NCBI GenBank assembly: GCA_002729695.1 | Contig: PBYQ01000035.1 | Coordinates: forward strand, 65,344 to 129,343 | Length of the DNA stretch: 64,000 nucleotides | From: Citromicrobium sp. | GTDB lineage: Bacteria > Pseudomonadota > Alphaproteobacteria > Sphingomonadales > Sphingomonadaceae | Reading direction: 5' to 3' | Made by a program: the position numbers and the translations under genes | Notes under the pieces: generated by a model | The model's input: the letters and a program-made list of their open reading frames with translations, nothing else | Told to the model about the DNA's origin: nothing | Database searches by the model: none | In this document: positions 30,423 through 46,417 of the stretch, in pieces | Layout of the letters: each line of letters begins with the position of its first letter | Numbering within the stretch: the first letter of the stretch is position 1

Positions 30423-30517
30423 TGGCGCGCGCTTGAAGTGCCGGCCCGACGGGTCGGAGATACCTCAGACCGATTCGCGCCGCGCGCGGTTGGTCGATCC
30501 AGTTTTTCGAGGGTAAC

Positions 30518-30652
30518 ATGAAGCGGACTTTCCAGCCCAGCAATCTCGTTCGTGCGCGCCGCCACGGTTTCTTCGCACGCAAGGCGACTACCGGTGGCCG
30601 CAAGGTTCTCGCCGCGCGCCGCAAGCGTGGCCGCAAGAAGCTCTGCGCCTAA
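30518..30652 (+). CDS. rpmH: 50S ribosomal protein L34
   Basis: Own translation: [44 protein letters not shown]. Below the ORF-track size cutoff. Confidence 0.95.
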
Positions 30653-30739
30653 GCCACTCCGGCTGAGATGCGAGCGAGGGCCAACGTGCCTGACGCTCAA
30701 GCTTGCGGGCTCCCATTCGGGGGCCCGTTTGCCTATCTA

Positions 30740-31132
30740 ATGGTCATGACCCAGTCCGTCGGCCCCAGCAACGCGATCACCGCGCGCGGCGATTTTCTCG
30801 CCGCGAATCGCGGTTTGCGTGTGCCCATGCCGGGATTCGTGCTGCTGGTGCATCCCAATAATGGGCGTGGCACGCGCTACGGCATCACCGTGACCAAGAA
30901 GATCGGCAATGCCGTTGTCCGCAACCGGATGAAGCGGCGCTTTCGCGAACTGCTGTGGGCGCACCTGCCTGCCGAGGGACTGCCCGACCACGACCACGTG
31001 CTGATCGGGCGCGAGGGCGGGGTGGAGCGCGATTTCGCGCGACTTTCCGAGGAGCTCGCCAAGGCACTGGGCCGCGCAGCGCGCGGCGAAGGCCAGCGCG
31101 GACGGCCGCCCAGGAAGAGGCGCGCACGATGA
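30740..31132 (+). CDS. rnpA: Ribonuclease P protein component
   Basis: GITVTKKIGNAVVRNRMKRRFRE motif, in the canonical position after rpmH. The start is 30740 or 30746. Confidence 0.85.
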   Translation: MVMTQSVGPSNAITARGDFLAANRGLRVPMPGFVLLVHPNNGRGTRYGITVTKKIGNAVVRNRMKRRFRELLWAHLPAEGLPDHDHVLIGREGGVERDFARLSEELAKALGRAARGEGQRGRPPRKRRAR

Positions 31133-31347
31133 GGCCGGTCAAGCGCCTGATGGTCATCATGATCCGTGGCTGGCAGCTCGGGCCGAGCGTGATTCTGCCC
31201 TCCAGTTGCCGCTTCCAGCCCAGCTGCTCGCAATACGCCATCGAGGCGATCGAGAAATACGGGCCAATCAAGGGTGGATGGCTGGGCTTCAAGCGTATAA
31301 TGCGCTGCCATCCGTGGGGTGGGCACGGCCATGATCCCGTACCCTGA
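31129..31347 (+). CDS. yidD: Membrane protein insertion efficiency factor YidD
   Basis: Internal ATG at 31129 (ATGA overlap with rnpA): CRFQPSCSQYAIEAIEKYG...RCHPW. Confidence 0.9.
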   Translation: MRPVKRLMVIMIRGWQLGPSVILPSSCRFQPSCSQYAIEAIEKYGPIKGGWLGFKRIMRCHPWGGHGHDPVP

Positions 31348-31404
31348 GCCCACGCCCCGATCATCGTTTCCTTTCGCCTGAAGACTAAGCAGGACCGCAT
31401 TTCC

Positions 31405-33189
31405 TTGGACAACCAGCGTAATCTCATCCTCGCCGTGGTGCTGTGCGGCATCCTGATCCTCGGTTACGATGCCGGCATCAGCTATTTCTACCCGACCCCG
31501 CCCGATACCGAGCAGGTCAACCGGGCGACCACGCCCGAGCAGCGGCGCGCGGCGGAAATCCAGGAAAACAGCGATGCGGGACCGGCTGCGACTCGCAACG
31601 CGGTCGCGGTCGATCAGGCAGAGACGGCGGTAGACCTCGAACAGGCGCTTGCTTCGGGCAACCGCGTGCGGATCGATGCGCCGCGGGTCGAAGGGTCGAT
31701 CAATCTTGTCGGCGCACGGATCGACGATATCGAGCTGAAGGATCACCGCGCGACGGTCGACAAGGACAGCGGCCCGGTGCAGCTGTTCGCGCCTGCGGGC
31801 ACTCCGATCCAGTATTTCGCGCAATTCGGGTTCGTCGGCGACGGCACCCAGCTGCCCGACGCGAAGACCGTCTGGAAGGCGAGCGGCGATGTGCTTTCGC
31901 CTGACAGCCCGGTGGAATTGCAATGGGACAATGCGGAGGGCCAGCGCTTTCGCATCCGCCTGTCGATCGACGACAATTACATGATCACCGCCGACCAGAC
32001 CGTGGCCAATATGGGCGACGGTCCGGTCGTGATCTCTCCCTTCGCGACGATCACGCGCACCAGCACCACATCGAGCAAGAGCACCTGGATTTCGCATTCC
32101 GGCCCGATCGGCTCGTTCGGCGGCTCGGTCGATTACGGCCCGGACTACAAGGATGTCGTCGAGGACACGGCGATTTCGGGTGCTGCCGATCCTGCCTGGA
32201 TCGGCTTTACCGACGTATACTGGCTCGGCGCGATGATCCCGCAGAGCGGCGCCGGGCTCAGCACCGGTTTCCGCTCGCTCGGCAATGATCTGTTCCGCGC
32301 GGACATGATCTACAACCCGACCACGCTGCGCCCCGGCCGCCAGATCACCCGCACTTCGCGCGTGTTTGCGGGCGCGAAGGAAAGCGGCGTGCTCGATCTC
32401 TATCAGGATCAGGGCATTTCGCAGTTTGGCCTCGCGATCGACTGGGGCTGGTTCCGCTGGTTCGAAAAGCCGATCCTGTGGCTGCTGCGCCAGATCTTCT
32501 CGGTCGTCGGCAATTTCGGCGTCGCGATCATCCTGCTGACCTGCATCGTGCGCGGGCTGATGTTCCCGATCGCGCAGAAGGGCTTCGCCAGCATGGCGAG
32601 CATGAAGGCGATCCAGCCTGAAATGAAAAAGCTGCAGGAGAAGTACAAGGACGACAAGGTCCAGCAGCAGCAGGAAATGCAGAAGCTGTTCAAGGAGCGG
32701 GGCGTCAATCCTGTCGCCGGCTGCCTGCCGATGCTGCTGCAGATTCCGGTGTTCTTCGCACTGTACAAGGTGCTGATCCTCGCGATCGAGATGCGCCACC
32801 AGCCGTTCGTCTTCTGGATTAAGGACTTGTCCGCTCCCGATCCGGCGCACATCCTCAACCTGTTCGGCATGCTGCCGTTCGAGGTGCCCGGGATGCTTGC
32901 TCTCGGCCCGCTCGCCTTGCTGCTCGGCTGCACGATGTGGCTGACCTTCAAGCTCAACCCGGCGGCGATGGACCCGGTCCAGCAGCAGGTCTTCTCGATC
33001 ATGCCGTGGGTGCTGATGTTCGTGATGTCGCCCTTCGCGGCCGGGCTGCTGCTTTACTGGAACACGTCCAACCTGCTGACGCTGGCACAGCAGAAGTACC
33101 TCTATTCCAAGCATCCGCAGCTGCGTGAGGCGGCGGATCGGGAACGGGCGGAAAAGGCGGCCAAGGCCCAGTCGGAAAGCAAGGCGTGA
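31405..33189 (+). CDS. yidC: Membrane protein insertase YidC
   Basis: 594 aa with a TTG start: N-terminal TM helix, large periplasmic domain and conserved C-terminal 5-TM core. Confidence 0.95.
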   Translation: MDNQRNLILAVVLCGILILGYDAGISYFYPTPPDTEQVNRATTPEQRRAAEIQENSDAGPAATRNAVAVDQAETAVDLEQALASGNRVRIDAPRVEGSINLVGARIDDIELKDHRATVDKDSGPVQLFAPAGTPIQYFAQFGFVGDGTQLPDAKTVWKASGDVLSPDSPVELQWDNAEGQRFRIRLSIDDNYMITADQTVANMGDGPVVISPFATITRTSTTSSKSTWISHSGPIGSFGGSVDYGPDYKDVVEDTAISGAADPAWIGFTDVYWLGAMIPQSGAGLSTGFRSLGNDLFRADMIYNPTTLRPGRQITRTSRVFAGAKESGVLDLYQDQGISQFGLAIDWGWFRWFEKPILWLLRQIFSVVGNFGVAIILLTCIVRGLMFPIAQKGFASMASMKAIQPEMKKLQEKYKDDKVQQQQEMQKLFKERGVNPVAGCLPMLLQIPVFFALYKVLILAIEMRHQPFVFWIKDLSAPDPAHILNLFGMLPFEVPGMLALGPLALLLGCTMWLTFKLNPAAMDPVQQQVFSIMPWVLMFVMSPFAAGLLLYWNTSNLLTLAQQKYLYSKHPQLREAADRERAEKAAKAQSESKA

Positions 33190-33842
33190 GCGCTCCCGGC
33201 CCGGGCCCGCAAACGCCCGACGAAATCGCCGCCGCGCGCATGGTTTCGGGCCGGGTCGAGTTCCTGCTCTCGGCCCCGCAGCTGAAATTTCTGCCCGAGC
33301 CGACGGTGCCCGAAGTCGCCCTCGCCGGGCGCTCCAACGTCGGCAAGAGCTCGCTGCTGAACGCGCTGACGATGCGCCGTGGTATCGCGCGTGCTTCGGT
33401 GACGCCCGGACGGACGCAGGAACTGAACATCTTCGAAGTCGGCGCGCCGACGCAGTTCCGGCTGGTCGACATGCCCGGCTACGGCTTCGCCAAAGCGCCC
33501 AAGAGCGTGGTCGAGAAGTGGCAGGGGCTCGTGCGCACCTACCTGCGCGGGCGGCCCGTGCTGGCGCGCACGCTGGTGCTGGTCGACAGCCGCCATGGGC
33601 TCAAAGACAGCGACCGGGCGATGATGAAGATGCTCGACGAAGCGGCGGTCGGCTATCGCATCGTCCTGACCAAGAGCGACAAGATCAAGGCGAGCGCGCT
33701 GCAAGCGATGCACGAAAAGGTCGCAGCCGAAGCGAAGAAGCATCCTGCGGCCTACCCGGAAATCCACCTCACCAGTGCCGAAAAGGGACAGGGCATTGCT
33801 GCCCTGCGCGCCGCCGTGGTCGCGGACGCGCTGACGCCGTAG
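33186..33842 (+). CDS. engB: Ribosome biogenesis GTPase EngB/YihA
   Basis: G1 motif GRSNVGKSS, followed by DMPGYG and TKSDK. 4-nt overlap with yidC. Confidence 0.9.
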   Translation: MSAPGPGPQTPDEIAAARMVSGRVEFLLSAPQLKFLPEPTVPEVALAGRSNVGKSSLLNALTMRRGIARASVTPGRTQELNIFEVGAPTQFRLVDMPGYGFAKAPKSVVEKWQGLVRTYLRGRPVLARTLVLVDSRHGLKDSDRAMMKMLDEAAVGYRIVLTKSDKIKASALQAMHEKVAAEAKKHPAAYPEIHLTSAEKGQGIAALRAAVVADALTP

Positions 33843-33918
33843 GCTCGGCTTCGCTCGACAGCGCAGGGGCGGCGCTCTACCCGCTTGCCCGATCCAGGAT
33901 TACGCGGCCGGACACGAC

Positions 33919-34587
33919 ATGAAACTGATCATCGGTAACAAGAACTATTCGAGCTGGAGCCTTCGCGGCTGGCTGGCGTGCAAGCAGGCGGGCCTCTCCT
34001 TCGAGGAAATCCTGGTGCCCTTGTTCGGAGAGGACTGGGAAGCGATCAGGCGCGGCGAGGGCGATCTGACGCCGTCATCGGGCAAGGTGCCGATCCTGTG
34101 GGACGACGAGGCGGTCGTGTGGGACAGTCTCGCGATCCTCGAATATCTGGCCGACAAGGTCGGGCGCGACCGATTCTGGCCCAAGGATGACAGCGCCCGG
34201 GCGATGGCGCGCGCCATGGTTGCGGAGATGCACAGTTCGTACCTGTCGCTGCGCCGCGAATGCCCGATGAACATCCGCACGCGCCACCAGAACGTGAAGA
34301 TATCCGAAACCACCCGGCAGGACGTTGTCCGCATCCTCGGCCTGTGGGCAGAGGCGCGCGCGCGTTTCGGCAGCGGCGGGCCGTTCCTGTTCGGCACCTT
34401 CGGGGCGGCGGACATTTTCTACGCCCCCGTTGTCAGCCGCTTCATCACCTATGGCTTCGGCGTGCCGGGATTTGCGGAAAGCTACATGCAGGCGGTCTGG
34501 ACGCACGACTGGCTGCAACAGTGGATCGCCGCGGCCGAGGACGAGCAATGGGTGATCGAGCAGTACGAGAGCGTCGCCGCCAATTGA
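33919..34587 (+). CDS. Glutathione S-transferase family protein
   Basis: MKLIIGNKNYSSWSLRGWLACKQAGLSFEE...VPILWDDEAVVWDSLAILEYL. Confidence 0.85.
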   Translation: MKLIIGNKNYSSWSLRGWLACKQAGLSFEEILVPLFGEDWEAIRRGEGDLTPSSGKVPILWDDEAVVWDSLAILEYLADKVGRDRFWPKDDSARAMARAMVAEMHSSYLSLRRECPMNIRTRHQNVKISETTRQDVVRILGLWAEARARFGSGGPFLFGTFGAADIFYAPVVSRFITYGFGVPGFAESYMQAVWTHDWLQQWIAAAEDEQWVIEQYESVAAN

Positions 34588-35471
34588 TCTTGCGTCCGGT
34601 TACGAGGTTGTGCGCGGCCCTGGCGGCTTTTGCGCTGCTGCTGCCGACGGCGGCTCATGCTTGGGGCTATTACGCGCACGGGATCGCCGCAGAGATCGCG
34701 CAGGCGAACATCCGGCCTGAAACGCGCGCGAAGCTGGAGCAGCTGTTCGCCGCCGAGCCGCTGATCGGCACGCCCGACTGCCCGCTCGGCAATCTGGTGG
34801 AGGCGGCGACATGGCCCGATTGCATCCGACGCGAAGGTTGGCGCTGGGGCTATACCTCGGCGTGGCACTATCAGACCGAGCCGGTGACCGAAGACTACGA
34901 CGCGCGCAAGAACTGCACGGGCGGCAATTGCGTCAGCGCGCAGATAGAGCGGAACTTCCGCATTCTCGCCGACGAGCGCCTGCCTGCCAACGTCCGGCTG
35001 CAGGCGCTCGCCTTCGTGGTCCACTTCACCGGCGACATTCACATGCCGTTGCATTCGGGCGATCTGGACGACCGGGGCGGTAACGACCGCGAGGCCGCCT
35101 ATGGCATCGCGCCGGGGCTCAACCTCCACTGGATCTGGGACGGTCCGCTGGCCGAACGCGCGATCACCAGCGCGCGGCCCTCGCTGGTGCGCCACCACAC
35201 CGCCGCCGAGCGCGCCGAGCTGGCGGGCGGCACGCCTGCCGACTGGGGCCGCGAGAGCTGGGAGACCGCGCGCGATTTCATCTATCCTAACGCCTTCGAT
35301 CGCAGCCCGCTCAACGGACCGCTGCCCGATGAGACCGCGCTGACGCAGGAGGCTATCGAAGCTGCGATTCCGGTATCGCAGCGCCGGGTAACCCAGGCGG
35401 GCCTGCGGATTGCCGACCTGCTTGACCGCGCGATGGAGCCGGGACCGCTGCCTGAGCCCGCGGGCGATTAG
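34584..35471 (+). CDS. S1/P1-family nuclease (secreted)
   Basis: No in-frame ATG, so a TTG start is inferred at 34584 (alternatives 34590, 34608). Signal ...AAFALLLPTAAHAWG. Metal motifs HFTGDIHMPLHSGDLDDRGGN. Confidence 0.8.
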   Translation: MILRPVTRLCAALAAFALLLPTAAHAWGYYAHGIAAEIAQANIRPETRAKLEQLFAAEPLIGTPDCPLGNLVEAATWPDCIRREGWRWGYTSAWHYQTEPVTEDYDARKNCTGGNCVSAQIERNFRILADERLPANVRLQALAFVVHFTGDIHMPLHSGDLDDRGGNDREAAYGIAPGLNLHWIWDGPLAERAITSARPSLVRHHTAAERAELAGGTPADWGRESWETARDFIYPNAFDRSPLNGPLPDETALTQEAIEAAIPVSQRRVTQAGLRIADLLDRAMEPGPLPEPAGD

Positions 35472-35484
35472 GGCGTGCGCTTCG

Positions 35485-35500
35485 CTGCGTAGCGTGTGCC
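35485..35500 (+). repeat. Left direct repeat (candidate attL core) of the genomic island
   Basis: CTGCGTAGCGTGTGCC. This is 15/16 identical to 45967-45982 and in the same orientation. Confidence 0.65.
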
Positions 35501-35913
35501 CGGTCAACCGGGTTTCTGGCTGCGTGTTCGGATCCGGTCTCACTGCGATCAATGGCCTGAGAGTTTTAATCTATTTTCCAGTGGATTGACGCGCCTTCTA
35601 GCGGCATCCGAGCGGAAAAGTTTTCTCAAGATGGTTCCAAAGTCAGGGCTTAAAATCACGCTCTGTTCCGAAATGGGGACCAAATAGCCAACATGCATAT
35701 CCTACCATCCGTCGGACGCACGCAGCCACTTCCAACTGCTTGCTTGACCCTATCGAAGAATTGTTGAACTAGAAGCACATGCTCATAGCGAAACTGCCTG
35801 CACTGAATCGTTCCGCCTTTGGCGACGAGCGGTTTGGCGCGCGCAATTACCGCGCCCTGCTGCCCAATCAAAGCGCTGCGCCCTAGTTCGGTCACCACCC
35901 AGACAAAGGACGC

Positions 35914-35944
35914 AGCCCCGCCGAGAAATCGACGGGGCTTTTTT
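35914..35944 (+). terminator. Rho-independent terminator just upstream of hen1, with no annotated gene in front of it
   Basis: AGCCCCG-ccgagaaatcga-CGGGGCT followed by TTTTT(T). Confidence 0.55.
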
Positions 35945-35961
35945 GTACCCGGATAGAGAAA

Positions 35962-37368
35962 ATGCTTCTGACAATCTCCACCACTCACAGGCCTGCTACC
36001 GACCTCGGCTTCCTCCTGATGAAGCATCCGGAGAACGTCCATTCGGTCGACCTGCCGTTCGGATCAGCGACTCTGTTCTACCCAGAGGCCGGGGAGGATC
36101 GATGCACCGCCGCGATTACTCTGGAGGTCGATCCGGTCGCACTGGTCAGGGGCAAGGCAAGCATTGAGGATCAGTACGTCAACGACCGGCCTTATGCCGC
36201 GTCATCGCTACTGTCGGTCGCCCTTGGCCGCCTTCTCAATACCGCAATGGGCGGTCGATCGAAGCTGCGTCAAGAGCTTGCTGATACCGCGATCCCGCTT
36301 GAATGTTCTCTTACGCCTCTCCCGGCCAGGGGGTCGGCTGACCTTCTGGCGCGCATGTTCGAACCGTTGGGATACTCGGTCGAGGCAGAAGCAATTCTGC
36401 TCGATCCGGCGCATCCAGAGTGGGGGGCTAGCCCATACGTGTCGCTGAACATCAAAGGCACGGTAAGGATTCAGGACCTGCTTACGCACCTCTTCGTACT
36501 CATTCCGGTGCTGGACAATTCCAAGCACTATTACGTGGGCGAGGATGAGGTCAAAAAACTGCTGCAAAAGGGTGGCGAATGGCTTGAGGCTCATCCTGAA
36601 AAGGAACTCATCGTTCGTCGTTACCTGCTCGGGTTCCGGTCGCTCATGCGGTCAGCAACCGAGCAACTAGAGGAGCGGGTTGAAGCGGAAGAACCGGAGG
36701 AACACGCATCGCGCGATGCCGAGGAAGAAAAGATCGAAAAGCCGATCCGGCTCAACACGCAGCGCATGGATTATCTGGCGGACTTGATCCGTAAACTCGG
36801 GGCGTCGAGCGTACTCGATCTTGGTTGCGGAGAAGGCCGGCTGTTGCGCCAGCTTCTCACGATCAAGGGTCTCGACCGCATTGTGGGCGTGGAGGTCGCG
36901 CCGCGCGTTCTGGCAAAAGCAGGTGACCGGCTGAAGCTGGAGCACATGCCGGACATCAAGCGCAAGCGGATTGAGCTGATGCAAGGCTCGCTCGTGTACC
37001 GCGACGATCGACTGAAGGGTTTCGACGCGGCCGCCCTTGTGGAGGTTATCGAGCACATCGATGCAGAGAGGTTGCCAGCACTGGAAGCGGCCTTGTTCGG
37101 TCACGCGCGACCGGCAAACGTGATCGTGACCACTCCCAATAGCGAATACAACGTCCTTTTCGAAGGGATGGAGCCAGGCGCCATGCGGCATTCGGACCAT
37201 CGGTTCGAGTGGTCGCGTTCCGAATTCCACCATTGGGCGGAATCAGTTGCGAAGGCGTACGGCTACGAGGTCCGATACGAAGGCATTGGGAGCGAAGATC
37301 CAACTTATGGTCACCCGACACAGGTCGCCATCTTTTCACGCGTCGATGCGGTGAAGGAGGCGGCATGA
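35962..37368 (+). CDS. hen1: Bacterial Hen1, 3'-terminal RNA ribose 2'-O-methyltransferase
   Basis: N-terminal MLLTISTTHRPATDLGFLLMKHPENVHS...FYPEA (bacterial Hen1 N-domain). C-terminal SAM motif VLDLGCGEGRLL and EVIEHID. Confidence 0.9.
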   Translation: MLLTISTTHRPATDLGFLLMKHPENVHSVDLPFGSATLFYPEAGEDRCTAAITLEVDPVALVRGKASIEDQYVNDRPYAASSLLSVALGRLLNTAMGGRSKLRQELADTAIPLECSLTPLPARGSADLLARMFEPLGYSVEAEAILLDPAHPEWGASPYVSLNIKGTVRIQDLLTHLFVLIPVLDNSKHYYVGEDEVKKLLQKGGEWLEAHPEKELIVRRYLLGFRSLMRSATEQLEERVEAEEPEEHASRDAEEEKIEKPIRLNTQRMDYLADLIRKLGASSVLDLGCGEGRLLRQLLTIKGLDRIVGVEVAPRVLAKAGDRLKLEHMPDIKRKRIELMQGSLVYRDDRLKGFDAAALVEVIEHIDAERLPALEAALFGHARPANVIVTTPNSEYNVLFEGMEPGAMRHSDHRFEWSRSEFHHWAESVAKAYGYEVRYEGIGSEDPTYGHPTQVAIFSRVDAVKEAA

Positions 37369-39908
37369 AGATCGAGATTCCAGAATTCGCGCTTGTCCTT
37401 CTGGTTGGCGCGTCGGGTATGGGCAAGTCTACCTTTGCGTCGAAGCACTTCCTGCCGACTGAGGTCGTATCCTCGGATCGCATGCGTGGTTGGATTGCCG
37501 ATGACGAGACTGACCAGTCCGCCACCGGCGACGCCTTCGACGTGCTCCATTTCATCGTCGAGAAACGGCTCAAGAACCGGCGGTTCACGGTCGTTGATGC
37601 AACCAGTGTACAACCGGAATCCCGCAAGAGCCTGGTCGCGCTTGCCCGCAAATGGCACGCCCTGGTCGTCGCCATTACCTTCGAACTGCCCGAAGAAGTC
37701 GCACTTGCTCGCAACGCCGAGCGTCCCGACCGCCAGTTTGGTGCAGGACCGGTCCGTCGCCAGATGCTCAATCTGAAACGCTCCATCAAAAGCATGGGGC
37801 GCGAAGGCATCCGCTACGTGCATCGCTTGCGCTCCATCGAGCAGGTGGAGGCGGTCGAGATAACGCGGACGCGCCTTTGGACTGACCGTCGCGAAGACTC
37901 CGGACCGTTCGACATTATCGGTGACGTGCACGGTTGTGCCGATGAACTCGAAACCATCTTGGACGAGCTTGGCTATCAAGTTTCGTGGGATGGCAAGGAC
38001 GTCCATGTAACTCCACCTGAAGGTCGCAGGGCGATCTTCGTTGGTGACCTCGTTGATCGTGGACCGCGTTCACCTGACGTCCTGCGTATCGCGAAACACA
38101 TGGTGGACTCCGGCACTGCCTTGGCCGTGGTCGGAAACCACGATGACAAGCTGAAGCGCCATCTGTCTGGCCGCAACGTCAAGCCGACGCACGGCCTTGC
38201 CGAGACCATCGAGCAGCTTGGTAGCGAGCCGCCGGAGTTCTTGGCTGAGATGCGCGAGTGGCTCGACGGTCTTTTGAGTCACTACCTGCTCGACGATGGG
38301 AAGCTCGTCGTCGCCCATGCCGGTCTAAAGGAAGAAATGCAGGGCCGCGCCTCTGGCGCGATCCGCAGCTTCTGCATGTATGGTGAAACGACTGGCGAGG
38401 TCGATGAGTTTGGCCTCCCCGTCAGGTGGGACTGGGCATCCGAATACAAGGGTCGCGCAAAGGTCGTTTACGGGCACACCCCGGTGCTCGAAGCGAACTG
38501 GGTCAACGGCACGATTTGCATCGATACCGGCTGCGTGTTCGGCGGCAAATTGACCGCTCTTCGCTACCCCGAACTTGAGTTGGTATCGGTCGACGCCGAG
38601 CAGACCTACTACGAGCCGATCAGGCCACTTGGTGGTCCCGCAGCCGATACGGGGAGCACGCCTGCACATCAGCTCAACATCGCTGACGTGCTCGGCAAGC
38701 AGGTAATCGAAACTGGCCTCTATGGTCATGTGACGGTGCGTGAAGACAACGCCGCTGCCGCACTAGAGGTAATGACTCGGCACGCAGTCGATCCGCACTG
38801 GCTGATCCATCTGCCGCCGACCATGTCGCCAGCGGAAACGAGCGCACAGGAAGGATGGCTAGAGCGGCCGGAAGAGGCCTTCGCCTATTACGGCTCGAAG
38901 GGCGCACGAAAGCTTGTGCTCGAAGAAAAGCACATGGGCTCGCGCGCGCTCATCGTGCTGTCGAAAACCCAAGAAACCGCGGCAAAGCGCTTTGGCGTTC
39001 ACGATGGTTCTCGAGGAACCATCGTGACCCGAACCGGTCGGCGCTTTTTCAACGATGCCGAATTGGAGGCGTCGGTTCTGCACCGCGTGGACCAGGCGAT
39101 GGAGAGTTCGGGCCTGTGGACTGAGCTCGATACCGATTGGGTCCTGTGGGACTGTGAAATCATGCCTTGGAGCATGAAGGCCGGTGCGCTTGTGCGCGGC
39201 CAATACGCTTCAGTTGGCGCAGCCGCCAACTCTGGATTGTCTGCCCTCGATGCCGCTTTGCAGGCTGCCATCGCACGTGGCGTGGATGTCAAAGATTTGG
39301 GCGCGCGAGTGTCCCAGCGCGTCGAAGACGCGGCGAGCTATCGCGAAGCGTACAATCGGTATGTCCACCCGTTCGAGGGCATAGCAGATCTGAAGATCGC
39401 ACCGTTTCATCTTTTGGCATCTGAGGGTCAGGTACATTCCGATAAGGATCACCTCTGGCACATGGGGATGGCTCACAGGCTATGTGCGGCTGACGCAGAC
39501 CTACTGCTTGCGACCGAATATCGAGCTCTCGATCTCGACGACGCTACTCAGGTTCAAGAGGCAATCGAATGGTGGGAGGCCATGACCGCCAAGGGTGGCG
39601 AGGGCATGGTGGTCAAGCCGCTCGACTTCATCGCTCGCGGTCGGCGCGGCCTTCTGCAACCTGCCATCAAGTGTCGGGGGCGGGAGTATCTGCGGATTAT
39701 CTATGGCCCGCACTACGACCGACCAGGCAACATCGAGCGGCTGAAAAAACGAGGACTTGGCCAGAAGCGGTCAATGGCATTGCGCGAATTCGCGTTGGGG
39801 ATCGAGGCGCTGAAACGGTTCGTCGACCACGCTCCGCTCACACGCGTGCACCAATGCGTGTTCGGAGTGCTGGCGATGGAGAGTGAGCCGGTTGATCCGC
39901 GGCTTTAA
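37365..39908 (+). CDS. pnkp: Polynucleotide kinase-phosphatase (Pnkp), with kinase, phosphoesterase and ligase-like domains
   Basis: ATGA overlap with hen1. P-loop GASGMGKST; calcineurin-type GDVHGC, GDLVDRGP and GNHD; C-terminal nucleotidyltransferase-like region containing EEKHMGSR. Confidence 0.9.
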   Translation: MKIEIPEFALVLLVGASGMGKSTFASKHFLPTEVVSSDRMRGWIADDETDQSATGDAFDVLHFIVEKRLKNRRFTVVDATSVQPESRKSLVALARKWHALVVAITFELPEEVALARNAERPDRQFGAGPVRRQMLNLKRSIKSMGREGIRYVHRLRSIEQVEAVEITRTRLWTDRREDSGPFDIIGDVHGCADELETILDELGYQVSWDGKDVHVTPPEGRRAIFVGDLVDRGPRSPDVLRIAKHMVDSGTALAVVGNHDDKLKRHLSGRNVKPTHGLAETIEQLGSEPPEFLAEMREWLDGLLSHYLLDDGKLVVAHAGLKEEMQGRASGAIRSFCMYGETTGEVDEFGLPVRWDWASEYKGRAKVVYGHTPVLEANWVNGTICIDTGCVFGGKLTALRYPELELVSVDAEQTYYEPIRPLGGPAADTGSTPAHQLNIADVLGKQVIETGLYGHVTVREDNAAAALEVMTRHAVDPHWLIHLPPTMSPAETSAQEGWLERPEEAFAYYGSKGARKLVLEEKHMGSRALIVLSKTQETAAKRFGVHDGSRGTIVTRTGRRFFNDAELEASVLHRVDQAMESSGLWTELDTDWVLWDCEIMPWSMKAGALVRGQYASVGAAANSGLSALDAALQAAIARGVDVKDLGARVSQRVEDAASYREAYNRYVHPFEGIADLKIAPFHLLASEGQVHSDKDHLWHMGMAHRLCAADADLLLATEYRALDLDDATQVQEAIEWWEAMTAKGGEGMVVKPLDFIARGRRGLLQPAIKCRGREYLRIIYGPHYDRPGNIERLKKRGLGQKRSMALREFALGIEALKRFVDHAPLTRVHQCVFGVLAMESEPVDPRL

Positions 39909-42244
39909 GTACGGACCCTGGCCCGCTGCCGGAGGCGTTCATAAAGCTGCACCTCCGCTTCGTGTGACAGTTCGACTGTCACAGCAAAATTCTGGCGACC
40001 AACGTCTCCAGCCCAACCACCCGCGCAGCGGACCACAAGGTAATAGTTGTCGCCGTATTGCTGGATGTCTCTTGAGAAGGTCACAGAAGCAGTTTGAAGA
40101 CTTGATTTCTCGCGGATCGTAGAACTTGGACTCAAATCGCAGTTGTAGCGGTTCTCAACTCGCGGAAACGGCCCTTCCTCTGCGGTTCGCTGGCGAAAAT
40201 GCTCAAAGATCAAGTCAGGCTCACAGCCCCGGATGAGCCGAAATCCCATAGAGACACCATTATAGTCGAGACGACTGTGTCGAACCGGCGGATCATAGGC
40301 TAAACTCACGCGGACCGTGCGGCGGCCGCGCTCCGTTTGAAATGCGTCTGGGATGGGTATCTGGTAAACAGCGAAATGATCGATCTCGAGCTCATCCTCA
40401 GCATAGAGAATGACCCGCGCATCGTCGGAGAACGACGCCCTTTCGGCATCTACTAGCCCATGTCCGCAAAGGTCGAGGGCCGCTCGTCCTCCCAACGGCT
40501 CAAGACGCCTCAGTGCCTCTTCTGGAGGAAGAGCACTGCTTGCTAGAAGTGCGCGAACAAGATTTGCAGATGCATCAGGAAAGCGAGCCAGTATTTGGCT
40601 CGCCTTGAAAGCGACGAGTGGAGCGGCGTACGACGTACCCGAATAGGTCGCAAACAAGCGATCTATTGGCCGATAATGAAGCGAGACAACACCGGCTTCG
40701 GGCCTTGCTTCGCCGCCGCGCAACGCAATTGCTTGCCCGTCATAAATCAGCGTTCCGCCAATGTCTGCGAAATCGGGCTTGATCGATCCCCGCACACCCG
40801 GTCCGGCACGTGAGAACGGAGATGGCTCGTTCAGATCGGCGATGGGACGAATTCCGATATTCTCTTGAGCTTGTCGGCCCAGGCCATTGCTATGCGCAAG
40901 CGAACCGACGGTAACAATGTTCATTCCGCCCGCCGGTTCACAAAGGCGGTTGCTTGGTTCGACCAGATAGCGAGGATATTCCGTAACCGCCTCTTCGATT
41001 CTGTTGCCACCTCGCGGTTGGTGATTTCCGGCGGACACGATGATGACCACGTCCAGCTCACGGACAAGTTCGTCGAGGGTTTGCGTCCAAGGGCCAACCT
41101 TGGATCCTTCGATGAGCTTTTTACGATCACCCAGCGCCACCACAAAAATACGGCAACCAAACTCATCGTGTAAGCGGGTGACAGCCTCGCGCATTAGACG
41201 CGGAGTGAGCCGACTATTCGGAAATCGCCCCCGATCATCCACTACCTTCGCCGAGCAGAGCCTTGCGTAGCGAACCAGCCTCTCCTGCCCAAGCTGAGCC
41301 CGCAAATCGCCAAAGGCGGCTATTCCTCCGACAAAGGTGCCATGGCAAAAATCATCGGCAGTACCGAGCGTGTCCGGAATGGCGATGGATCCCGCGATAA
41401 CGTCTTCAATTAGAGGGTGATCGTTGATCCCGCTATCAATGATGCCAATTAACGGGAGATCGTCGGTCGCGTCCTCGGGGTCTGGCACATCCGCCAACGG
41501 TCGCTCGATTAACTCACTCGTGGTGAGATCGGGCTCAGGCGGAAAGTCGAGTTCGGCGATCTCCTCGATGTTCAGCAGACTGCGGGCCACCGTTCCATCG
41601 GCACGCAATCGAAGCATCGTCAAATTTGGACCAATGTGACGGTCCAACTCTTCTGCCCCGAGGGCCTCTGAGTATGCAGCGATGTCGTCGAGCTTGCGCT
41701 CACGCAAGGCTCGTGGTCCCAAATCCCAAAGTTCGATATCGAGTATATACTCTACACCCGCCTGGAAATCGTCGACCTCAACCAAGCCTTCCTCGCGCGC
41801 GCGCATCCCAATGCGATCACGCGGCGCGACCTCGGCGATCGCATCAACATTTGCGATGAAAGCGGCATAAGCCGGGTTCTGCCGACCCGGCTGCGTTCCT
41901 TGCCCATAGCTGTCTAGCTTGTTCCGGAACTCATCAAGTTCATCACTGTCGGCAAACAAAATGAGTGTGCGATCCTCGTCGCTCGAGAGGACAGTCAGCC
42001 CAACTTTCGCCCACTCATCCTCTTGGAGTGCCCCATGCATCTGGACACGCAAAATAAGTGATGGATCGACGGAATCAGGTCTGCGTCGCCTTCTTTGTGA
42101 CGCTATTGCTTCGTCGAGCTCGTCGCTGAGCTGGCGGCTGTGCCCGCCGGGATTTCGTTGCGGTGGTGGCCCACCGCCGCCGGTTTTGCGGCGAGGGAGG
42201 CGCTCCGGCAGCCTGACAAGCTCAAGGTGATCGTAGCGAGGCAA
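39905..42244 (-). CDS. Cytoplasmic S8 (subtilisin-like) serine peptidase, IetS-like
   Basis: 779 aa, TTG start. Triad D270 (IGIIDSG), H301 (FCHGTFV) and S538 (SGTSYAAP), oxyanion N407 (SAGN). It has a ~265-aa N-terminal and a ~240-aa C-terminal extension. The N-terminus is charged and has no signal peptide. Confidence 0.85.
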   Translation of the reverse strand: MPRYDHLELVRLPERLPRRKTGGGGPPPQRNPGGHSRQLSDELDEAIASQRRRRRPDSVDPSLILRVQMHGALQEDEWAKVGLTVLSSDEDRTLILFADSDELDEFRNKLDSYGQGTQPGRQNPAYAAFIANVDAIAEVAPRDRIGMRAREEGLVEVDDFQAGVEYILDIELWDLGPRALRERKLDDIAAYSEALGAEELDRHIGPNLTMLRLRADGTVARSLLNIEEIAELDFPPEPDLTTSELIERPLADVPDPEDATDDLPLIGIIDSGINDHPLIEDVIAGSIAIPDTLGTADDFCHGTFVGGIAAFGDLRAQLGQERLVRYARLCSAKVVDDRGRFPNSRLTPRLMREAVTRLHDEFGCRIFVVALGDRKKLIEGSKVGPWTQTLDELVRELDVVIIVSAGNHQPRGGNRIEEAVTEYPRYLVEPSNRLCEPAGGMNIVTVGSLAHSNGLGRQAQENIGIRPIADLNEPSPFSRAGPGVRGSIKPDFADIGGTLIYDGQAIALRGGEARPEAGVVSLHYRPIDRLFATYSGTSYAAPLVAFKASQILARFPDASANLVRALLASSALPPEEALRRLEPLGGRAALDLCGHGLVDAERASFSDDARVILYAEDELEIDHFAVYQIPIPDAFQTERGRRTVRVSLAYDPPVRHSRLDYNGVSMGFRLIRGCEPDLIFEHFRQRTAEEGPFPRVENRYNCDLSPSSTIREKSSLQTASVTFSRDIQQYGDNYYLVVRCAGGWAGDVGRQNFAVTVELSHEAEVQLYERLRQRARVRT

Positions 42245-42251
42245 TGACAGC

Positions 42252-43238
42252 TCATGCTTCAGCTATACGCGCTGTGCGTCTACGCCGCCGCCGCTCATCA
42301 GCCAATGCATCGAGGAAGTCCTTTTCCGAAACCTGCTTTCGCTGATCGATGATCGATGCCTTGATCGCCTGAACACAGATCCTTTCCAGTTCAGCGTAGG
42401 AGTATCCATCTAACCCATCCAAATGAGCCTCGGGATCGAACTGCAATGGAACGTTCTTAAATTTCATTCGAAGGAAGCGAGCGGCCATTCGTCGATCAGG
42501 ACGGTCAAACCATATTACTTCGTCAAAACGCCGCCATATCGCGGAATCCAGAGATTGGTCGAAGTTGGTCGCAGCTACCAAAAAGCCTTTCGGTTGGATC
42601 CGATCAATGAATATCAGGAGGCTATTCACTACCCGGCGCAACTCGCTGTGCTCGCCATCTTCGCTCCGTGCACGGGCTAGCGCATCAAACTCATCGAAAA
42701 AGAGGACAGTAGGTTGCTTGCGAGCAAACTCGAAGATTTTGCGGATATTTGTCGCTGTTTCGCCAAGGTATGACGAGATTAGCCGGTCAATCTTAACGAT
42801 ATAGAGCGGCAAACCGAGTTCTGCAGCGAACACTTCAGCACACAATGTCTTGCCGCAGCCTGGCGGCCCGCAGAAAAGCAATTTGGAGCGCACAGGCAGG
42901 CCGCGCCGACGGATTTCGTCGCCGCGACGATATTCTCGCAGCAACGACAAGAAGATTCGCACATTCTCGGAGGACAGTACGATGTCCTGTTTGTTGTGTG
43001 ACGGCTCGACCAGCTCGATGAAATCACCAGCTGACTCTGGGAATGGAATTAATGGCGCAAGGCCTCTCGGCTTTGATCGCGGCGAAGGGCCGGCCTCCAA
43101 GGATTTGCGCAGCGAACGAGCCAGAACGCGGTTATTTTTCTTCTCCTCTTCGCCGATGATCTGCTCGGCCACAGCGCGGAACTCTTCGTCCCGGCCGTAA
43201 CTTGCCAGCAGCTTTTTCATCAACTCACCGCGCGCCAT
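42252..43238 (-). CDS. Classic-clade AAA+ ATPase, IetA-like
   Basis: Walker A GPPGCGKT, Walker B VLFFDEFD, sensor-1 ATN, and RRFD. It ends 7 nt upstream of the S8 gene. The start is uncertain (TTG 43271, ATG 43238 or ATG 43220). Confidence 0.85.
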   Translation of the reverse strand: MARGELMKKLLASYGRDEEFRAVAEQIIGEEEKKNNRVLARSLRKSLEAGPSPRSKPRGLAPLIPFPESAGDFIELVEPSHNKQDIVLSSENVRIFLSLLREYRRGDEIRRRGLPVRSKLLFCGPPGCGKTLCAEVFAAELGLPLYIVKIDRLISSYLGETATNIRKIFEFARKQPTVLFFDEFDALARARSEDGEHSELRRVVNSLLIFIDRIQPKGFLVAATNFDQSLDSAIWRRFDEVIWFDRPDRRMAARFLRMKFKNVPLQFDPEAHLDGLDGYSYAELERICVQAIKASIIDQRKQVSEKDFLDALADERRRRRRTARIAEA

Positions 43239-43423
43239 TCTCTTCCATTCAACCGAAGTCGCCCCAGACAACTATAGCGATTGTTCTCTAAATCGCCAGC
43301 AATGACGCGCAAGCGGATCACCGAACCTTTCGGAGCTATCTCGCTCTGGCGAAAGGATTCCTCTGGCGAAGAATCACAATCCGTATGCGCACCTTGTGCT
43401 TGTCCACATTTCGTCCACAAGGA

Positions 43424-44641
43424 TCAATTCCAAAGCGACTGATTTCCCCCGCACATTCGTTCGACTGCGTCGCCAATCTGCTGCGTCGCATCTAGCAAGT
43501 GGTCATCATCCAAATGCGCATACCGGGCCGTCGACTGGTGGTTCGCATGGCCAAGCAATCGACCGATCATGGGCAGCGTTTCCTTGTTCATGGCGGCATG
43601 GCTGGCGAAGGTGTGTCGCAGGTCATGGATGCGGACGTGACCAAGTCCGGCACGTTCGCGGATGCCTTTCCATGCCCAGGCCACATCGCGCATTTGCCGC
43701 CGGTACCGGTAGTTCCAGAACAGCCAAGGCAGTTTCCGATGGCGTGGAATGCCAGCAATGACCTCTCGTGCGGCGGAGCCGAGCCAGACGGTGCGCGGTC
43801 CTGTCTTGCTGTCGCGAAGGTTCAGCCGATTTCCCTTCACTTCGCCCCAGTGCAGATTGAGTATCTCGCCTCGTCGACAGCCGGTCAGCAGCAGCAAGGT
43901 GATTGCCGCGCCTTCACAGCGGGCGGTCAGATCGTCGCTCTCCCGTAGCTTCGCAAGCTCGATGCCGACGCGCCCCAGCTCTTCAACCGTCAAAAACCGC
44001 TCGCACTGGCGTTTGCGGTTTGGTCGGATCGACCGGCACGGGTTGGTATTCTCCAGCCGATACCCCCACGCCTCAGCCTTGTTGAGCATGTGCTTGAGGA
44101 TTTCGAGGGTCCGATTGGCAGCACCCGGACCGGTGCGGTTGTTGAGCTCGGCAAACCACTTGGTCACATGCTCTTCGTTGACCTCGTCGATGAAGACGCC
44201 CTTGAAGGCGTCATCGAGGTAGAGCCGCCGGTAGCGTGTGTGTGAATCGAGCGTCGAGGCTTTCCAACGCGGCGACCAGCGGGTCCAATATTCCTCAAGG
44301 AAATCGTCAAACCTCGGCGCGGATCGAATGCGCTTGCGATCGGTGGCCGGATCGCGCCCCACCTGCGCGTAGGCAATGACGCGGCGCGCGACCATTTGCG
44401 CCTGATGGCGCGTGAGGACCGAAGCCGGGCCGATAGTCACGGTGCGGAGCCTGCCGCCCATCCGGGTCTGTACGATGTAGACGTTCCGTCCGCTGGGATA
44501 GTGACGGATGCCGAAGCCGTGCTCGATCCCGAGCCAGGTAGTCGTCCGTGCCTTGCCCTTGGGAACGAGCCTGAAGTTTACCGATGCTCCAACCTCGGCC
44601 AGTGCCTCTTCGACGATGCGCTTGAGGCTGGCAGCGGTCAT
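43424..44641 (-). CDS. Tyrosine-type site-specific integrase (second of a tandem pair)
   Basis: 405 aa, with a DUF4102-like N-terminus. C-terminal catalytic motifs: LTGCRRGE, HDLRHTFAS, LLGH and ARYAHL. Confidence 0.9.
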   Translation of the reverse strand: MTAASLKRIVEEALAEVGASVNFRLVPKGKARTTTWLGIEHGFGIRHYPSGRNVYIVQTRMGGRLRTVTIGPASVLTRHQAQMVARRVIAYAQVGRDPATDRKRIRSAPRFDDFLEEYWTRWSPRWKASTLDSHTRYRRLYLDDAFKGVFIDEVNEEHVTKWFAELNNRTGPGAANRTLEILKHMLNKAEAWGYRLENTNPCRSIRPNRKRQCERFLTVEELGRVGIELAKLRESDDLTARCEGAAITLLLLTGCRRGEILNLHWGEVKGNRLNLRDSKTGPRTVWLGSAAREVIAGIPRHRKLPWLFWNYRYRRQMRDVAWAWKGIRERAGLGHVRIHDLRHTFASHAAMNKETLPMIGRLLGHANHQSTARYAHLDDDHLLDATQQIGDAVERMCGGNQSLWN

Positions 44642-45810
44642 GACCGCAGTCCAATCGCCTGTGCCAGCGAGCCTGAAATACGTTCGGCGGCATCGCCGAT
44701 CACGTCATCGGACAGATGCGCGTACTTCGCCGTCGTCTCCGGCAAGACGTGACCGAGCAGCTTGCCGATAGTGGCGAGCGGCACGTTGTCCATGATCGCG
44801 GTCGAAGCGAAGCTGTGCCGCAGATCGTGGACGCGCAGGTCGGGCATCGCGCAGCGTCGCCGCAGATTGTACCACCACGGCTCGATGTTGACCGGGTGCT
44901 TGCCCCGTGAGTTTACGAACACCAGCGCGTCATCTTCACCGCGCTCAAATCCGGCCAGCACCTCCAGCGCCTGTGAATTGAGCCAGATCACCTTCGGGCC
45001 GGTCTTGCTGTCGGGCAGCACGAGCCGGGGCGGTTTAACCATTCCCCATCGAAGAAACCTGATCTCGCCCAACCGGGCTCCGGTGAACATCAGCAGCCGC
45101 ACTATTGCGACCGGGATGGGATGCTCGGCTTCGGCCTCACGCAAAGCCGCGCCCAAGCGGCGATACTCTGCAGGTGTGAGGTACCGCTCCATCTTCGGGC
45201 GCTTGAAGCGCGGCATTCCCCGGCAAGGGTTCGATCCCTTGCGCCGCATCCGCAGCGCCTCGGCGTATTTCATGAGCGAGGCGAGTACGGGCACGGCGCG
45301 GTTGAAGCTTGTTTCGCCTGCCCCAGAGCAGCCGTCGCGCCAGCGGTGGATGTCGGCGGGCATGATGTCCGCCACCCGCATAGCGCCAAATTCCGGCTCG
45401 ATGGAAAGCCGCCACGCATTGCGATTGCGCTTGATCGTCGAAGGCTTCCAGACCCGCGAAAGGTCATCCCAATACGTCTCGACGAAATCGGAAAGCGTTG
45501 GCGTGGCTTTGACCACGGCACGCTTGGGCAGACCGTCCAGCGCCACCTCAGCCAGAATGCGCCGCGCTTGTGCCCTTGCTACGCCAGCGTCCAGTTCATC
45601 GGTTCGGCCAAGCGAAATCCGGCGATGCTTGCCGCGATGTCGTACGCGGACAAACCAGAAGTAATTGCCGCTCGGCCTGACACGCAGGCCGAACCCGGCA
45701 AGCTCAGTATCCCAGATGCAATATTCGGTCTCGCGAAGCGGCAGCTTGCGCCGCGCGAAATTACCATCGAGCAGTGCCCGGCGCCCGGGCTTTCGCCGCC
45801 TGGGGACCAT
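44638..45810 (-). CDS. Tyrosine-type site-specific integrase (first of the tandem pair, next to the right repeat)
   Basis: FTGARLGE, HDLRHSFAS, LLGH and AKYAHL. The start is chosen at the internal ATG 45810 (MVPRRRKPG...) because the 45951 start would overlap the cupin gene. ATGA overlap with the next integrase. Confidence 0.85.
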   Translation of the reverse strand: MVPRRRKPGRRALLDGNFARRKLPLRETEYCIWDTELAGFGLRVRPSGNYFWFVRVRHRGKHRRISLGRTDELDAGVARAQARRILAEVALDGLPKRAVVKATPTLSDFVETYWDDLSRVWKPSTIKRNRNAWRLSIEPEFGAMRVADIMPADIHRWRDGCSGAGETSFNRAVPVLASLMKYAEALRMRRKGSNPCRGMPRFKRPKMERYLTPAEYRRLGAALREAEAEHPIPVAIVRLLMFTGARLGEIRFLRWGMVKPPRLVLPDSKTGPKVIWLNSQALEVLAGFERGEDDALVFVNSRGKHPVNIEPWWYNLRRRCAMPDLRVHDLRHSFASTAIMDNVPLATIGKLLGHVLPETTAKYAHLSDDVIGDAAERISGSLAQAIGLRS

Positions 45811-45919
45811 ATGGCAATCGTCACTAGCAAAACTGCCCCCAAAAGTCGCGGAATTACCGTCATTTGCGGGGACCGGATGGCCTTCAACAGCATGCCTGCT
45901 GTCGAGCACTTCCAGCATC

Positions 45920-46417
45920 TCACGCACTGATTTTACGGCATTTTTTCCCATACCATGGCAGTCTTACTGCGTAGGGTGTGCCGTCCTTGCGTGCGTAGCC
46001 TTCGGCATCGAACACCATGTCGATATCGGGGTACTCGCCCGAGTCCTTGTCCTTCGCCCCCGCGCTGATCGCGACGAATACGCAATCGGCATTGCTGCAG
46101 TTCTGAAGGTGATGGCCGTTTTGAACGCCCGCTGCCCAAGCGACGACATCGCCGGGGCGGATCACGGTTTCACCTTCATCTTCCACCAGTACCGCTTCGC
46201 CCGAGAGCATCACCAGCAGCTCGTCTTCTTCGCTGTGCCAGTGTCGCTGGCTCGACCAAGCGCCCGGCTTCAGCGTCACATGGCTCGCGCCCATGCGCGT
46301 CAGCCCGGCAACGGGCGCGAGGCGGCGATACCAGCGGCCCTGCACCTCGGCATCGAACGGGGTGGGGTAGCCGGTCGCGTTGGTCTGTGGGATCGCGTCG
46401 AGATCGAGCTTGGGCAT
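45920..46417 (-). CDS. Cupin domain protein whose last 13 codons are island-derived
   Basis: Cupin core: HWHSEEDELLVMLSGEAVLVEDEGETVIRPGDVVAW. After ...KDGTPYA the C-terminus reads VRLPWYGKKCRKISA, encoded left of the attR repeat. Confidence 0.75.
   Translation of the reverse strand: MPKLDLDAIPQTNATGYPTPFDAEVQGRWYRRLAPVAGLTRMGASHVTLKPGAWSSQRHWHSEEDELLVMLSGEAVLVEDEGETVIRPGDVVAWAAGVQNGHHLQNCSNADCVFVAISAGAKDKDSGEYPDIDMVFDAEGYARKDGTPYAVRLPWYGKKCRKISA
45967..45982 (+). repeat. Right direct repeat (candidate attR core) of the genomic island
   Basis: CTGCGTAGGGTGTGCC. It lies inside the 3' end of the cupin ORF, where it encodes GTPYA. Confidence 0.65.

Follow-up and report, generated by a model that had tools for sequence, protein, structure and literature searches.

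What role could a subtilase play that carries no export signal and is encoded directly behind an AAA+ ATPase? This question is raised by a two-gene operon in a 64,000-nucleotide (nt) stretch of Citromicrobium sp. DNA (contig PBYQ01000035.1, positions 65,344 to 129,343; called the window below). A first-pass annotation made from the sequence alone had put this operon forward as a candidate IetAS (Gao_Iet) defense system on a mobile island. Our analysis indicates that the pair is probably a canonical two-gene IetAS module of the Y4kK/Y4kL-like type, carried as cargo on a 10.5-kb integrative island of a marine Erythrobacteraceae genome, in which a protease toxin (IetS) is restrained by its ATPase partner (IetA). 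Direct support for this reading comes from the assignment of both proteins to the family by profile, from the conserved order and coupling of the genes, from an invariant set of S8 catalytic residues in a protein that lacks an export signal, and from the mobility of the host element. Coordinates of the features are collected in Table 1.

Both proteins were recognized by profile models of the IetAS family. IetA matched PADLOC model PDLC02196 at E=1.4e-84 (283 bits) and three more IetA models at E<=1e-43. IetS matched PDLC02198 at E=1.1e-117 (392 bits), with residues 3-777 aligned to positions 3-781 of a profile of 795, and seven further PADLOC IetS models also matched. As a control, we scored the founding IetA and IetS of pTiC58, with sequences taken from pMP90 (locus L023), and obtained 239 and 86 bits on the same two models. 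Because the window pair outscores the founders, it sits more centrally in PADLOC's definition of IetAS than they do. The best NCBIfam matches were the anti-phage models IteA (NF042959) and IteS (NF042956). The family match proposed in the first-pass annotation is thus borne out at the profile level, with full-length matches. These scores identify the pair as a bona fide IetAS module, of a subfamily distant from the characterized ones. The family itself has already been described, and any PADLOC or DefenseFinder run would label the pair as IetAS.

The arrangement of the genes is also that of IetAS members: the ATPase gene directly adjoins the protease gene, upstream of it and in the same orientation. 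Both minus-strand open reading frames (ORFs) of the proposed operon are present, the protease is 779 amino acids (aa) long as annotated, and the spacer between the ietA TGA and the ietS TTG is exactly 7 nt (42245-42251). The start of the ATPase had to be revised. Position 43271, chosen initially, is an upstream in-frame TTG. Since the N-terminal sequence MARGELMKKLL is kept in 28 of 30 aligned IetA homologs (alignment A2) and public gene calls give a protein of 328 aa, translation almost certainly begins at the ATG at 43238, and the stretch 5' to it is probably an untranslated leader that holds the ietA ribosome-binding site, GGAAGAGA. Across 15 sequences (the window and 14 related loci), the ietA stop always lay no more than 40 nt upstream of the ietS start, which was GTG in nine, TTG in two, and ATG in four; no obvious Shine-Dalgarno sequence preceded the ietS start in this set. 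A weak ietS start just past the ietA stop points to translationally coupled genes and to a toxin-to-antitoxin ratio that is low, and these features fit a toxin made at a lower level than its antitoxin. A scan of the operon for regulatory sites yielded 0 promoter-like sites, with terminator-like sites at chance level.

The order of the two genes is conserved well beyond the window. In each of the 17 Sphingomonadales genome loci recovered, ietA was immediately upstream of ietS, and the same order was seen on Rhizobium phaseoli plasmid pRphaR744c (L001), which was inspected as a check on neighbor conservation, and in pTiC58. On pRphaR744c, the neighbors of the pair are otherwise unrelated to those in the window, and the pair thus appears from synteny to move as a self-contained cassette among unrelated neighbors.

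We then considered what each protein is equipped to do. All four motifs listed for the ATPase in the first-pass annotation are in place (in the numbering of the 339-aa ORF, GPPGCGKT at 135, VLFFDEFD at 189, ATN at 234, and RRFD at 247), and the assignment to the classic AAA ATPases agrees with a match to Pfam AAA (PF00004, E=5.8e-34). In the revised 328-aa numbering, Walker A spans G124-T131, pore loop-1 is Y157-L158-G159, Walker B contains D182-E183, sensor-1 is N225, and the arginine fingers are R236-R237. L158-G159, D182-E183, N225, and R236-R237 are invariant among the homologs of alignment A2, and Y157 is nearly so. An AlphaFold2 (AF2) model of IetA (predicted local distance difference test [pLDDT] score, 79) consists of a three-helix bundle at aa 3-48, a disordered linker at aa 50-68, and the AAA module with its lid; the helical N-domain of about 125 aa described earlier therefore shrinks to a bundle of about 48 aa followed by the linker. 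This N-terminal segment had no match in Pfam-A (2025 copy) or among Protein Data Bank (PDB) sequences. The solved sequences nearest to IetA in the PDB search were those of the p97/Cdc48 D2, VAT, and AFG2/Rix7 group, that is, generic AAA unfoldases only, and its NCBIfam relatives besides IteA were PAN, FtsH, CDC48, and CdvC. By fold, Foldseek placed it nearest to proteasomal Rpt subunits, PAN, p97-D2, and FtsH, all of which are polypeptide translocases. Given these closest folds, together with the conservation of the pore loop, Walker B, sensor-1, and the arginine fingers, IetA is predicted to be a working unfoldase; as judged from its motifs, it keeps every element of a functional polypeptide translocase (Walker A and B, pore loop-1 Y-L-G, sensor-1, and arginine fingers).

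An unfoldase encoded beside a protease could also work as a two-component AAA+ protease in the manner of ClpXP or the proteasome, with IetA unfolding substrates and feeding them to IetS, so that it would activate the protease rather than restrain it. The intact pore loop of IetA would suit such a machine, as would the fact that proteasomal ATPases, p97, and FtsH are its nearest relatives by sequence and by fold, and the report that both activities are necessary for defense in homologs (PMC13069673). We nevertheless regard it as improbable, because genetics in three distant homologs found the protease alone to be toxic and mutation or deletion of the ATPase to be lethal (PMC13069673, PMC8562856, PMC5006074), and S8 subtilases are monomeric enzymes with an open cleft, not chambered proteases that need an unfoldase. 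Nor was a docking motif such as HbYX or IGF seen, although no search aimed at one was made. Restraint of IetS by IetA remains the preferred reading of the pair.

IetS is likewise intact as an enzyme. The residues assigned to its active site, D270 (in IIDSG), H301 (CHGTF), N407 (AGNH), and S538 (GTSYAAP), lie in subtilase contexts, were verified at the positions first proposed, and are invariant in 46 IetS family members with identities down to 26% (alignment A3). Intact catalytic residues in both enzymes, here Walker A and B and the Asp-His-Ser triad, are a feature of IetAS members. Hydropathy analysis, the one method applied to this point, detected no signal peptide or transmembrane segment in IetS (best 19-aa Kyte-Doolittle window, 1.06), in agreement with the absence of a signal peptide noted before. 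The first 60 aa are highly charged, with 13 K/R and 9 D/E, and contain no hydrophobic N-terminal stretch. IetS is accordingly predicted to be a cytoplasmic protein. The checks that the first-pass annotation had named as able to refute its call, on profiles, neighbor conservation, and secretion, thus left that call standing. That it is an ordinary exported subtilase accompanied by an accessory ATPase is a proposal to which we give almost no credence: most S8 subtilases are indeed secreted, and the fold matches described below include secreted propeptide enzymes, but neither a hydrophobic N-terminal segment nor a transmembrane segment is present, the N terminus is highly charged and is conserved family-wide, and the IetS profile matches along the full length of the protein.

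The regions on either side of the S8 core, which had been left unassigned, proved to have an identity of their own. Precomputed Pfam domains PF27160 (Y4kK_N) and PF27210 (Y4kK_2nd) cover the N-terminal region as family domains, and the C-terminal region is a conserved, predicted beta-sandwich. The protein opens with the motif H6-L-x-L-x-R ... RRK-x-GGGG-x3-x-R-x5-H, which is near-invariant in alignment A3 (IetS aa 1-30; window 42155-42244, minus strand), and the pattern H-x-x-L ... R-GGGG(G) ... P-x-R-(D/N) ... H is common to the IetS of the window and that of pTiC58 (L023 2637-2760). This conserved N-terminal motif is a candidate recognition handle for IetA. Because the AF2 model of IetS, built from a 40-sequence alignment, is weak, we used only its secondary-structure layout. 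In this layout, a conserved hairpin and Gly-rich loop are followed by a long helix and then by a pair of beta-alpha-beta-beta-alpha(-beta) modules, at about aa 64-115 and aa 165-233, of which the latter has a topology like that of subtilase propeptides. From there, a linker with little conservation (aa 234-262) leads into the S8 core, and the C-terminal domain is predicted to be an all-beta sandwich with strands within aa 610-762. The top PDB match in Foldseek was the propeptide-bearing ProN-Tk-SP (3afg; propeptide, S8 domain, and jelly-roll) at E=9.5e-17; further matches were PCSK9, Kex2, and furin (S8 plus P domain), and jelly-roll folds matched the C terminus. We infer that the C-terminal sandwich may resemble the P-domain or jelly-roll found behind the catalytic domain of kexin, furin, and Tk-SP. 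Since the root mean square deviations of these Foldseek matches are large, the comparison is a lead, not a result, and the prodomain-like and P-domain-like readings of the two regions are tentative. A sequence search of the PDB with the whole protein returned no solved relative beyond generic subtilisins.

Domain architecture and length place the pair in a large alphaproteobacterial Y4kK/Y4kL-like subfamily. Among representatives of 50%-identity clusters, an exhaustive search found 2,777 relatives at E<=1e-3 and 568 at E<=1e-30, with the full-length architecture kept down to about 28% identity. Lengths of Y4kK-type proteins are nearly uniform (most IetS proteins have 777-779 aa, and most IetA proteins have 322-329 aa), and all IetS homologs listed have the Y4kK_N, Y4kK_2nd, and Peptidase_S8 architecture in precomputed Pfam annotation. 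An identical IetS is deposited at NCBI as "S8 family serine peptidase [Altererythrobacter oceanensis]" and also occurs on Tara Oceans scaffolds and in marine metagenome-assembled genomes; for IetA, exact or 99%-identical counterparts are present in Qipengyuania oceanensis, Citromicrobium sp., and Altererythrobacter atlanticus. At the DNA level, the pair matched 43 alphaproteobacterial plasmids, and an S8 peptidase and an ATP-binding protein were both annotated under the match in 23 of the 25 plasmid records listed. Phage genomes rarely carry relatives, with 4 weak matches.

The function proposed here draws on homologs of known activity. Based on accounts of Yamamoto 2009 (J Bacteriol 191:4656) in PMC13069673, PMC8562856, and PMC5006074, the pTiC58 IetAS was first described as a plasmid-stabilizing toxin-antitoxin pair in which the protease is the toxin and the AAA ATPase is its antitoxin. 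The window pair shares with it the two-gene operon with the ATPase first, a 328-aa IetA that aligns end to end at 33% identity including the N-domain, an S8 core and part of the C-terminal region that align, the N-terminal Gly-rich motif, and matches to the same PADLOC models. It differs in that the pTiC58 IetS is 57 aa shorter and 24% identical over aa 262-670 only, with most of the N-terminal region left unaligned by BLAST, and in that the pTiC58 pair is on a plasmid, whereas the window pair is on a chromosomal integrative island. The closest ecological analog is SgiAT (SgiA/SgiT; S026/S025) of SGI1, which promotes maintenance of an integrative mobilizable island and is 50% (antitoxin) and 36% (toxin) identical to the pTiC58 proteins (PMC5006074). 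SgiAT is likewise an IetAS homolog on an integrase-bearing chromosomal island, although it belongs to another host clade and island family and is likened here by description, not by sequence. TA132/133 of Mycoplasma mycoides is a functional toxin-antitoxin pair in which the protease is toxic and deletion of the ATPase alone is lethal (PMC8562856). It has the same gene order and domain pair, is chromosomal, and is of similar size (353 and 757 aa); it comes from the Mollicutes and is again likened by description, not by sequence. By analogy with these systems, IetS would be toxic on its own, active IetA would neutralize it, and the pair would stabilize plasmids or islands.

Other homologs act against phage. 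Gao et al. 2020, as cited in secondary sources, reported anti-phage activity of ietAS in Escherichia coli, and protection against phage is described for both E. coli and Bacillus cereus homologs (PMC13069673; 10.1101/2022.08.27.505566; 10.1101/2022.08.21.504612). In B. cereus m1293, ietAS acts by abortive infection, with yosG of SPbeta as the trigger (bioRxiv 10.1101/2022.08.27.505566). The three-gene E. coli variant ietHAS depended on protease activity, and cloning of an ietA mutant did not succeed (PMC13069673). These anti-phage systems have in common a need for protease activity, an abortive-infection phenotype, and an ATPase that is antitoxin-like (PMC13069673; 10.1101/2022.08.27.505566). 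The first-pass annotation held that the trigger, substrate, and mechanism of IetAS had not been established. This is still so for the molecular mechanism (PMC13069673, 2026), but a trigger, yosG, and an abortive-infection phenotype have been reported. The literature that we searched contained no recent mechanistic study of AAA-subtilase defense. The window pair belongs to the same PADLOC family and has the same two core components as these systems. It differs from ietHAS in that no SNF2 helicase gene (ietH) adjoins it, its flanks being integrases and Pnkp, and it differs from the anti-phage ietAS in that its proteins are not close relatives of the sequences behind NCBIfam IteA and IteS. Extrapolating from these homologs, the pair may confer abortive-infection protection against phage that requires protease activity. 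Its actual subfamily is that of the Y4kK-type pairs of Rhizobium, Bradyrhizobium, and Sphingomonadales (such as the one on pRphaR744c), to which it is 60-85% identical, with the same lengths and the same Y4kK_N/Y4kK_2nd/S8 architecture; database entries give these pairs no names beyond "S8 family peptidase" and "ATP-binding protein."

Several findings weigh against extending the function of the characterized systems to this pair. Identity to pTiC58 is only 33% for IetA and 24% for IetS, and the NCBIfam scores (240.5 bits against a cutoff of 510 for IteA, and 89.4 bits against 900 for IteS) fall far below the equivalog cutoffs, which marks the window pair as part of a distinct subfamily. The literature searched, including searches on y4kK and y4kL, held no experimentally characterized member of the Y4kK subfamily, and no phage, trigger, or substrate is known for the host of the pair. 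The AF2 model of IetS is of low confidence (pLDDT, 63; predicted template modeling score, 0.40; catalytic core partly <50). Finally, our searches with the separate segments of IetS found no match to the N-terminal one in Pfam-A (2025 copy) or among PDB sequences, and none to the C-terminal one in Pfam-A (2025 copy).

The mobile island postulated around the operon can now be delimited exactly. Using the flanking S1-P1 nuclease as the query of a metagenome scan, we found 60 of 80 related contigs in which the nuclease gene and a cupin gene were both present and no island gene was detected; in most of these 60 contigs, the two genes abut convergently. The closest such empty site, contig L024 (98% and 94% amino-acid identity), gave the exact junctions: the empty site contains a single copy of a 16-bp core, and the window has a copy at each island end. 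This core has only 2 matches in the 64 kb, against 0.03 expected by chance. A blind search for attachment (att) repeats returned chance-level pairs only, and the repeats emerged from the empty-site comparison alone. The GC content is 58.7% across the region and 65.5-66.6% in the flanks. A second location was found in Citromicrobium bathyomarinum MCCC1A09709, where a 10,252-bp region is 96% identical to window positions 35733-45981, has different flanks, and is also bounded by the 16-bp core. Together, the repeats, the empty sites, and the second location define a 10,498-bp site-specific integrative island, inserted, as the alignment with L024 indicates, in the last codons of the cupin gene (45920-46417, minus strand). 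At the empty site, the S1-P1 nuclease and cupin genes converge, and their stop codons overlap. In the window, the native cupin C terminus, DGTRYAAKRTP in L024, is replaced by an island-encoded end, DGTPYAVRLPWYGKKCRKISA, with the island-encoded part of the gene at 45920-45982 (minus strand). A tRNA integration site was considered and rejected: ARAGORN detected no tRNA or tmRNA gene in the window, and the att site lies in the 3' end of the cupin gene. The two tandem integrases of the island are 35% identical, and their genes overlap by 4 nt; no excisionase-like ORF was recognized beside them (43424-45918).

The same setting bears on a possible alternative that we take seriously without favoring it, namely, that the pair is mainly an addiction (post-segregational killing) module that keeps the island, rather than an anti-phage system. 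This alternative differs from the favored reading in the selected function alone, with no difference in biochemistry. The window pair lies inside a small excisable element beside the integrases of that element. An integrase is found no more than 8 kb from ietAS in 6 of the 17 genome loci, and homologs are frequent on conjugative alphaproteobacterial plasmids, which account for 33 of the 43 DNA-level matches. The stabilization of pTiC58 by the founding pair, as cited in PMC13069673 and PMC8562856, and the maintenance of an integrative mobilizable island by SgiAT (PMC5006074) point in the same direction. Addiction does not exclude defense, however, as the phage protection by the E. coli and B. 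cereus homologs cited above illustrates, and sequence gives no way to tell the two roles apart.

Under the favored reading of the pair as an ATPase-restrained protease toxin, we propose the following working model. The weak TTG/GTG start of ietS and its translational coupling would leave IetA in excess, and hexameric IetA would spend ATP to keep IetS inactive. It may do so by engaging the conserved N-terminal handle or the prodomain-like modules, thereby holding or remodeling a zymogen-like IetS. Neutralization would stop when a phage protein blocks or titrates IetA, when the element is lost, or when ATP collapses. IetS, once released, would cleave host (or phage) proteins in the cytoplasm, and the resulting arrest of the cell would abort the infection and would also penalize loss of the island. 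A bolder version, which we consider rather unlikely, holds that IetS is a zymogen like a eukaryotic proprotein convertase (tandem propeptide-like modules, S8 core, and P-domain-like beta-sandwich), with its Gly-rich handle held continuously in the pore of IetA and the MIT-like three-helix bundle of IetA serving as a sensor or adaptor, so that a stop in threading triggers immunity or addiction. If true, the protease would be under an ATP-dependent "dead-man switch," a regulatory logic that, to our knowledge, has not been demonstrated for any toxin-antitoxin or defense system.

Table 1. Features of the IetAS operon and of the integrative island that carries it (window coordinates).
Feature	Coordinates	Strand	Description and evidence
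ietA	42252..43238	-	328-aa classic-clade AAA+ ATPase, putative antitoxin/regulator; PADLOC IetA, Pfam AAA, alignment A2
ietS	39905..42244 (stop codon included)	-	779-aa predicted cytoplasmic S8 subtilase, putative toxin/effector; TTG start
ietS N-terminal region, aa 1-263	41456..42244	-	Y4kK_N and Y4kK_2nd (precomputed Pfam), AF2 secondary structure
ietS S8 catalytic domain, aa 264-596	40457..41455	-	Pfam Peptidase_S8 PF00082, E=2.2e-28
ietS C-terminal region, aa 597-779	39908..40456	-	AF2 secondary structure, Foldseek matches
In-frame 5' extension of the ietA ORF	43239..43271	-	First in-frame TTG at 43271 (339 aa)
Integrative island	35485-45982 (10,498 bp)		att repeats, integrases, empty sites, second copy
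Island end repeat (att core), CTGCGTAGCGTGTGCC	35485..35500		Located by comparison with empty site (L024)
Island end repeat (att core), CTGCGTAGGGTGTGCC	45967..45982		Inside last codons of flanking cupin gene
Tyrosine integrase 1, 405 aa	43424..44641	-	Pfam Phage_integrase, Arm-DNA-bind_3
Tyrosine integrase 2, 426 aa or 390 aa (two public gene calls)	44638..45918	-	Pfam
Hen1 RNA 2'-O-methyltransferase, 468 aa	35962..37368	+	Pfam Hen1_L, E=1.6e-102; co-cargo
Pnkp polynucleotide kinase-phosphatase-ligase, 847 aa	37365..39908	+	PNKP_ligase E=2e-172, AAA_33, Metallophos; co-cargo

Besides ietAS, the island carries a second cargo operon, in which Hen1 precedes Pnkp and the stop of the one overlaps the start of the other in an ATGA at 37365-37368. 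The 3' end of Pnkp overlaps the convergent 3' end of ietS by 4 nt (39905-39908), and the two operons travel together in the 96%-identical Citromicrobium copy. On these grounds one might suppose that IetAS and Hen1-Pnkp form a single four-gene unit, in which RNA repair might serve to reset the cell, or to protect it, following activation. Synteny led us to reject this supposition, which we hold to be very improbable: neither the other 16 genome loci nor the plasmid locus has Hen1-Pnkp, Pnkp has no PADLOC match, and Hen1 has only a generic methyltransferase match. Because Hen1-Pnkp adjoins ietAS only in copies of the same island, gene neighborhoods mark it as co-cargo and not as one system with ietAS. 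No link of Pnkp or Hen1 to defense islands was found in the literature searched.

Some further features of the element and its surroundings were recorded. The Citromicrobium copy is 13.2 kb long because of some 2.8 kb of additional cargo, which lies between Hen1 and the end of the island (L018 14512-17488) and comprises a fatty-acid-desaturase-like ORF and an ORF with a weak polyketide-cyclase/SRPBCC match. A further integrase and a YspA/SLOG-domain gene adjoin this copy, which suggests that the Citromicrobium site is a hotspot or a tandem array of elements. In the window, an AT-richer noncoding stretch of about 460 nt (35501-35961) separates the left att repeat from Hen1; it may contain integrase arm sites or a promoter. 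The outer part (35484-35690) is 72% conserved with the matching end of the Citromicrobium element, and an Rfam scan of the island gave no match at E<=0.1. The island lies a few kb from an rpmH-rnpA-yidD-yidC-engB cluster (window ~30000-35500, L002 gene calls), a neighborhood that is often near the replication origin.

Taken together, these results place the window pair in a subfamily that is very large, length-invariant, and only distantly related to the characterized IetAS systems, and they correct the literature record on IetAS as given in the first-pass annotation by adding its toxin-antitoxin origin, its abortive-infection phenotype, and one known trigger. The presence of RNA repair genes on a mobile element beside an abortive-infection module may have a meaning of its own, for example, protection against ribotoxins. 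The island is small and fully delimited, its att repeats, pair of integrases, and two cargo operons are mapped, and natural empty sites as well as another insertion site are available, so that it offers a clean test bed for telling island addiction from phage defense. The translocase pore of IetA, the weak and coupled toxin start, the N-terminal motif of IetS, and its propeptide-like and P-domain-like modules provide targets for asking how an AAA+ ATPase restrains a protease toxin.

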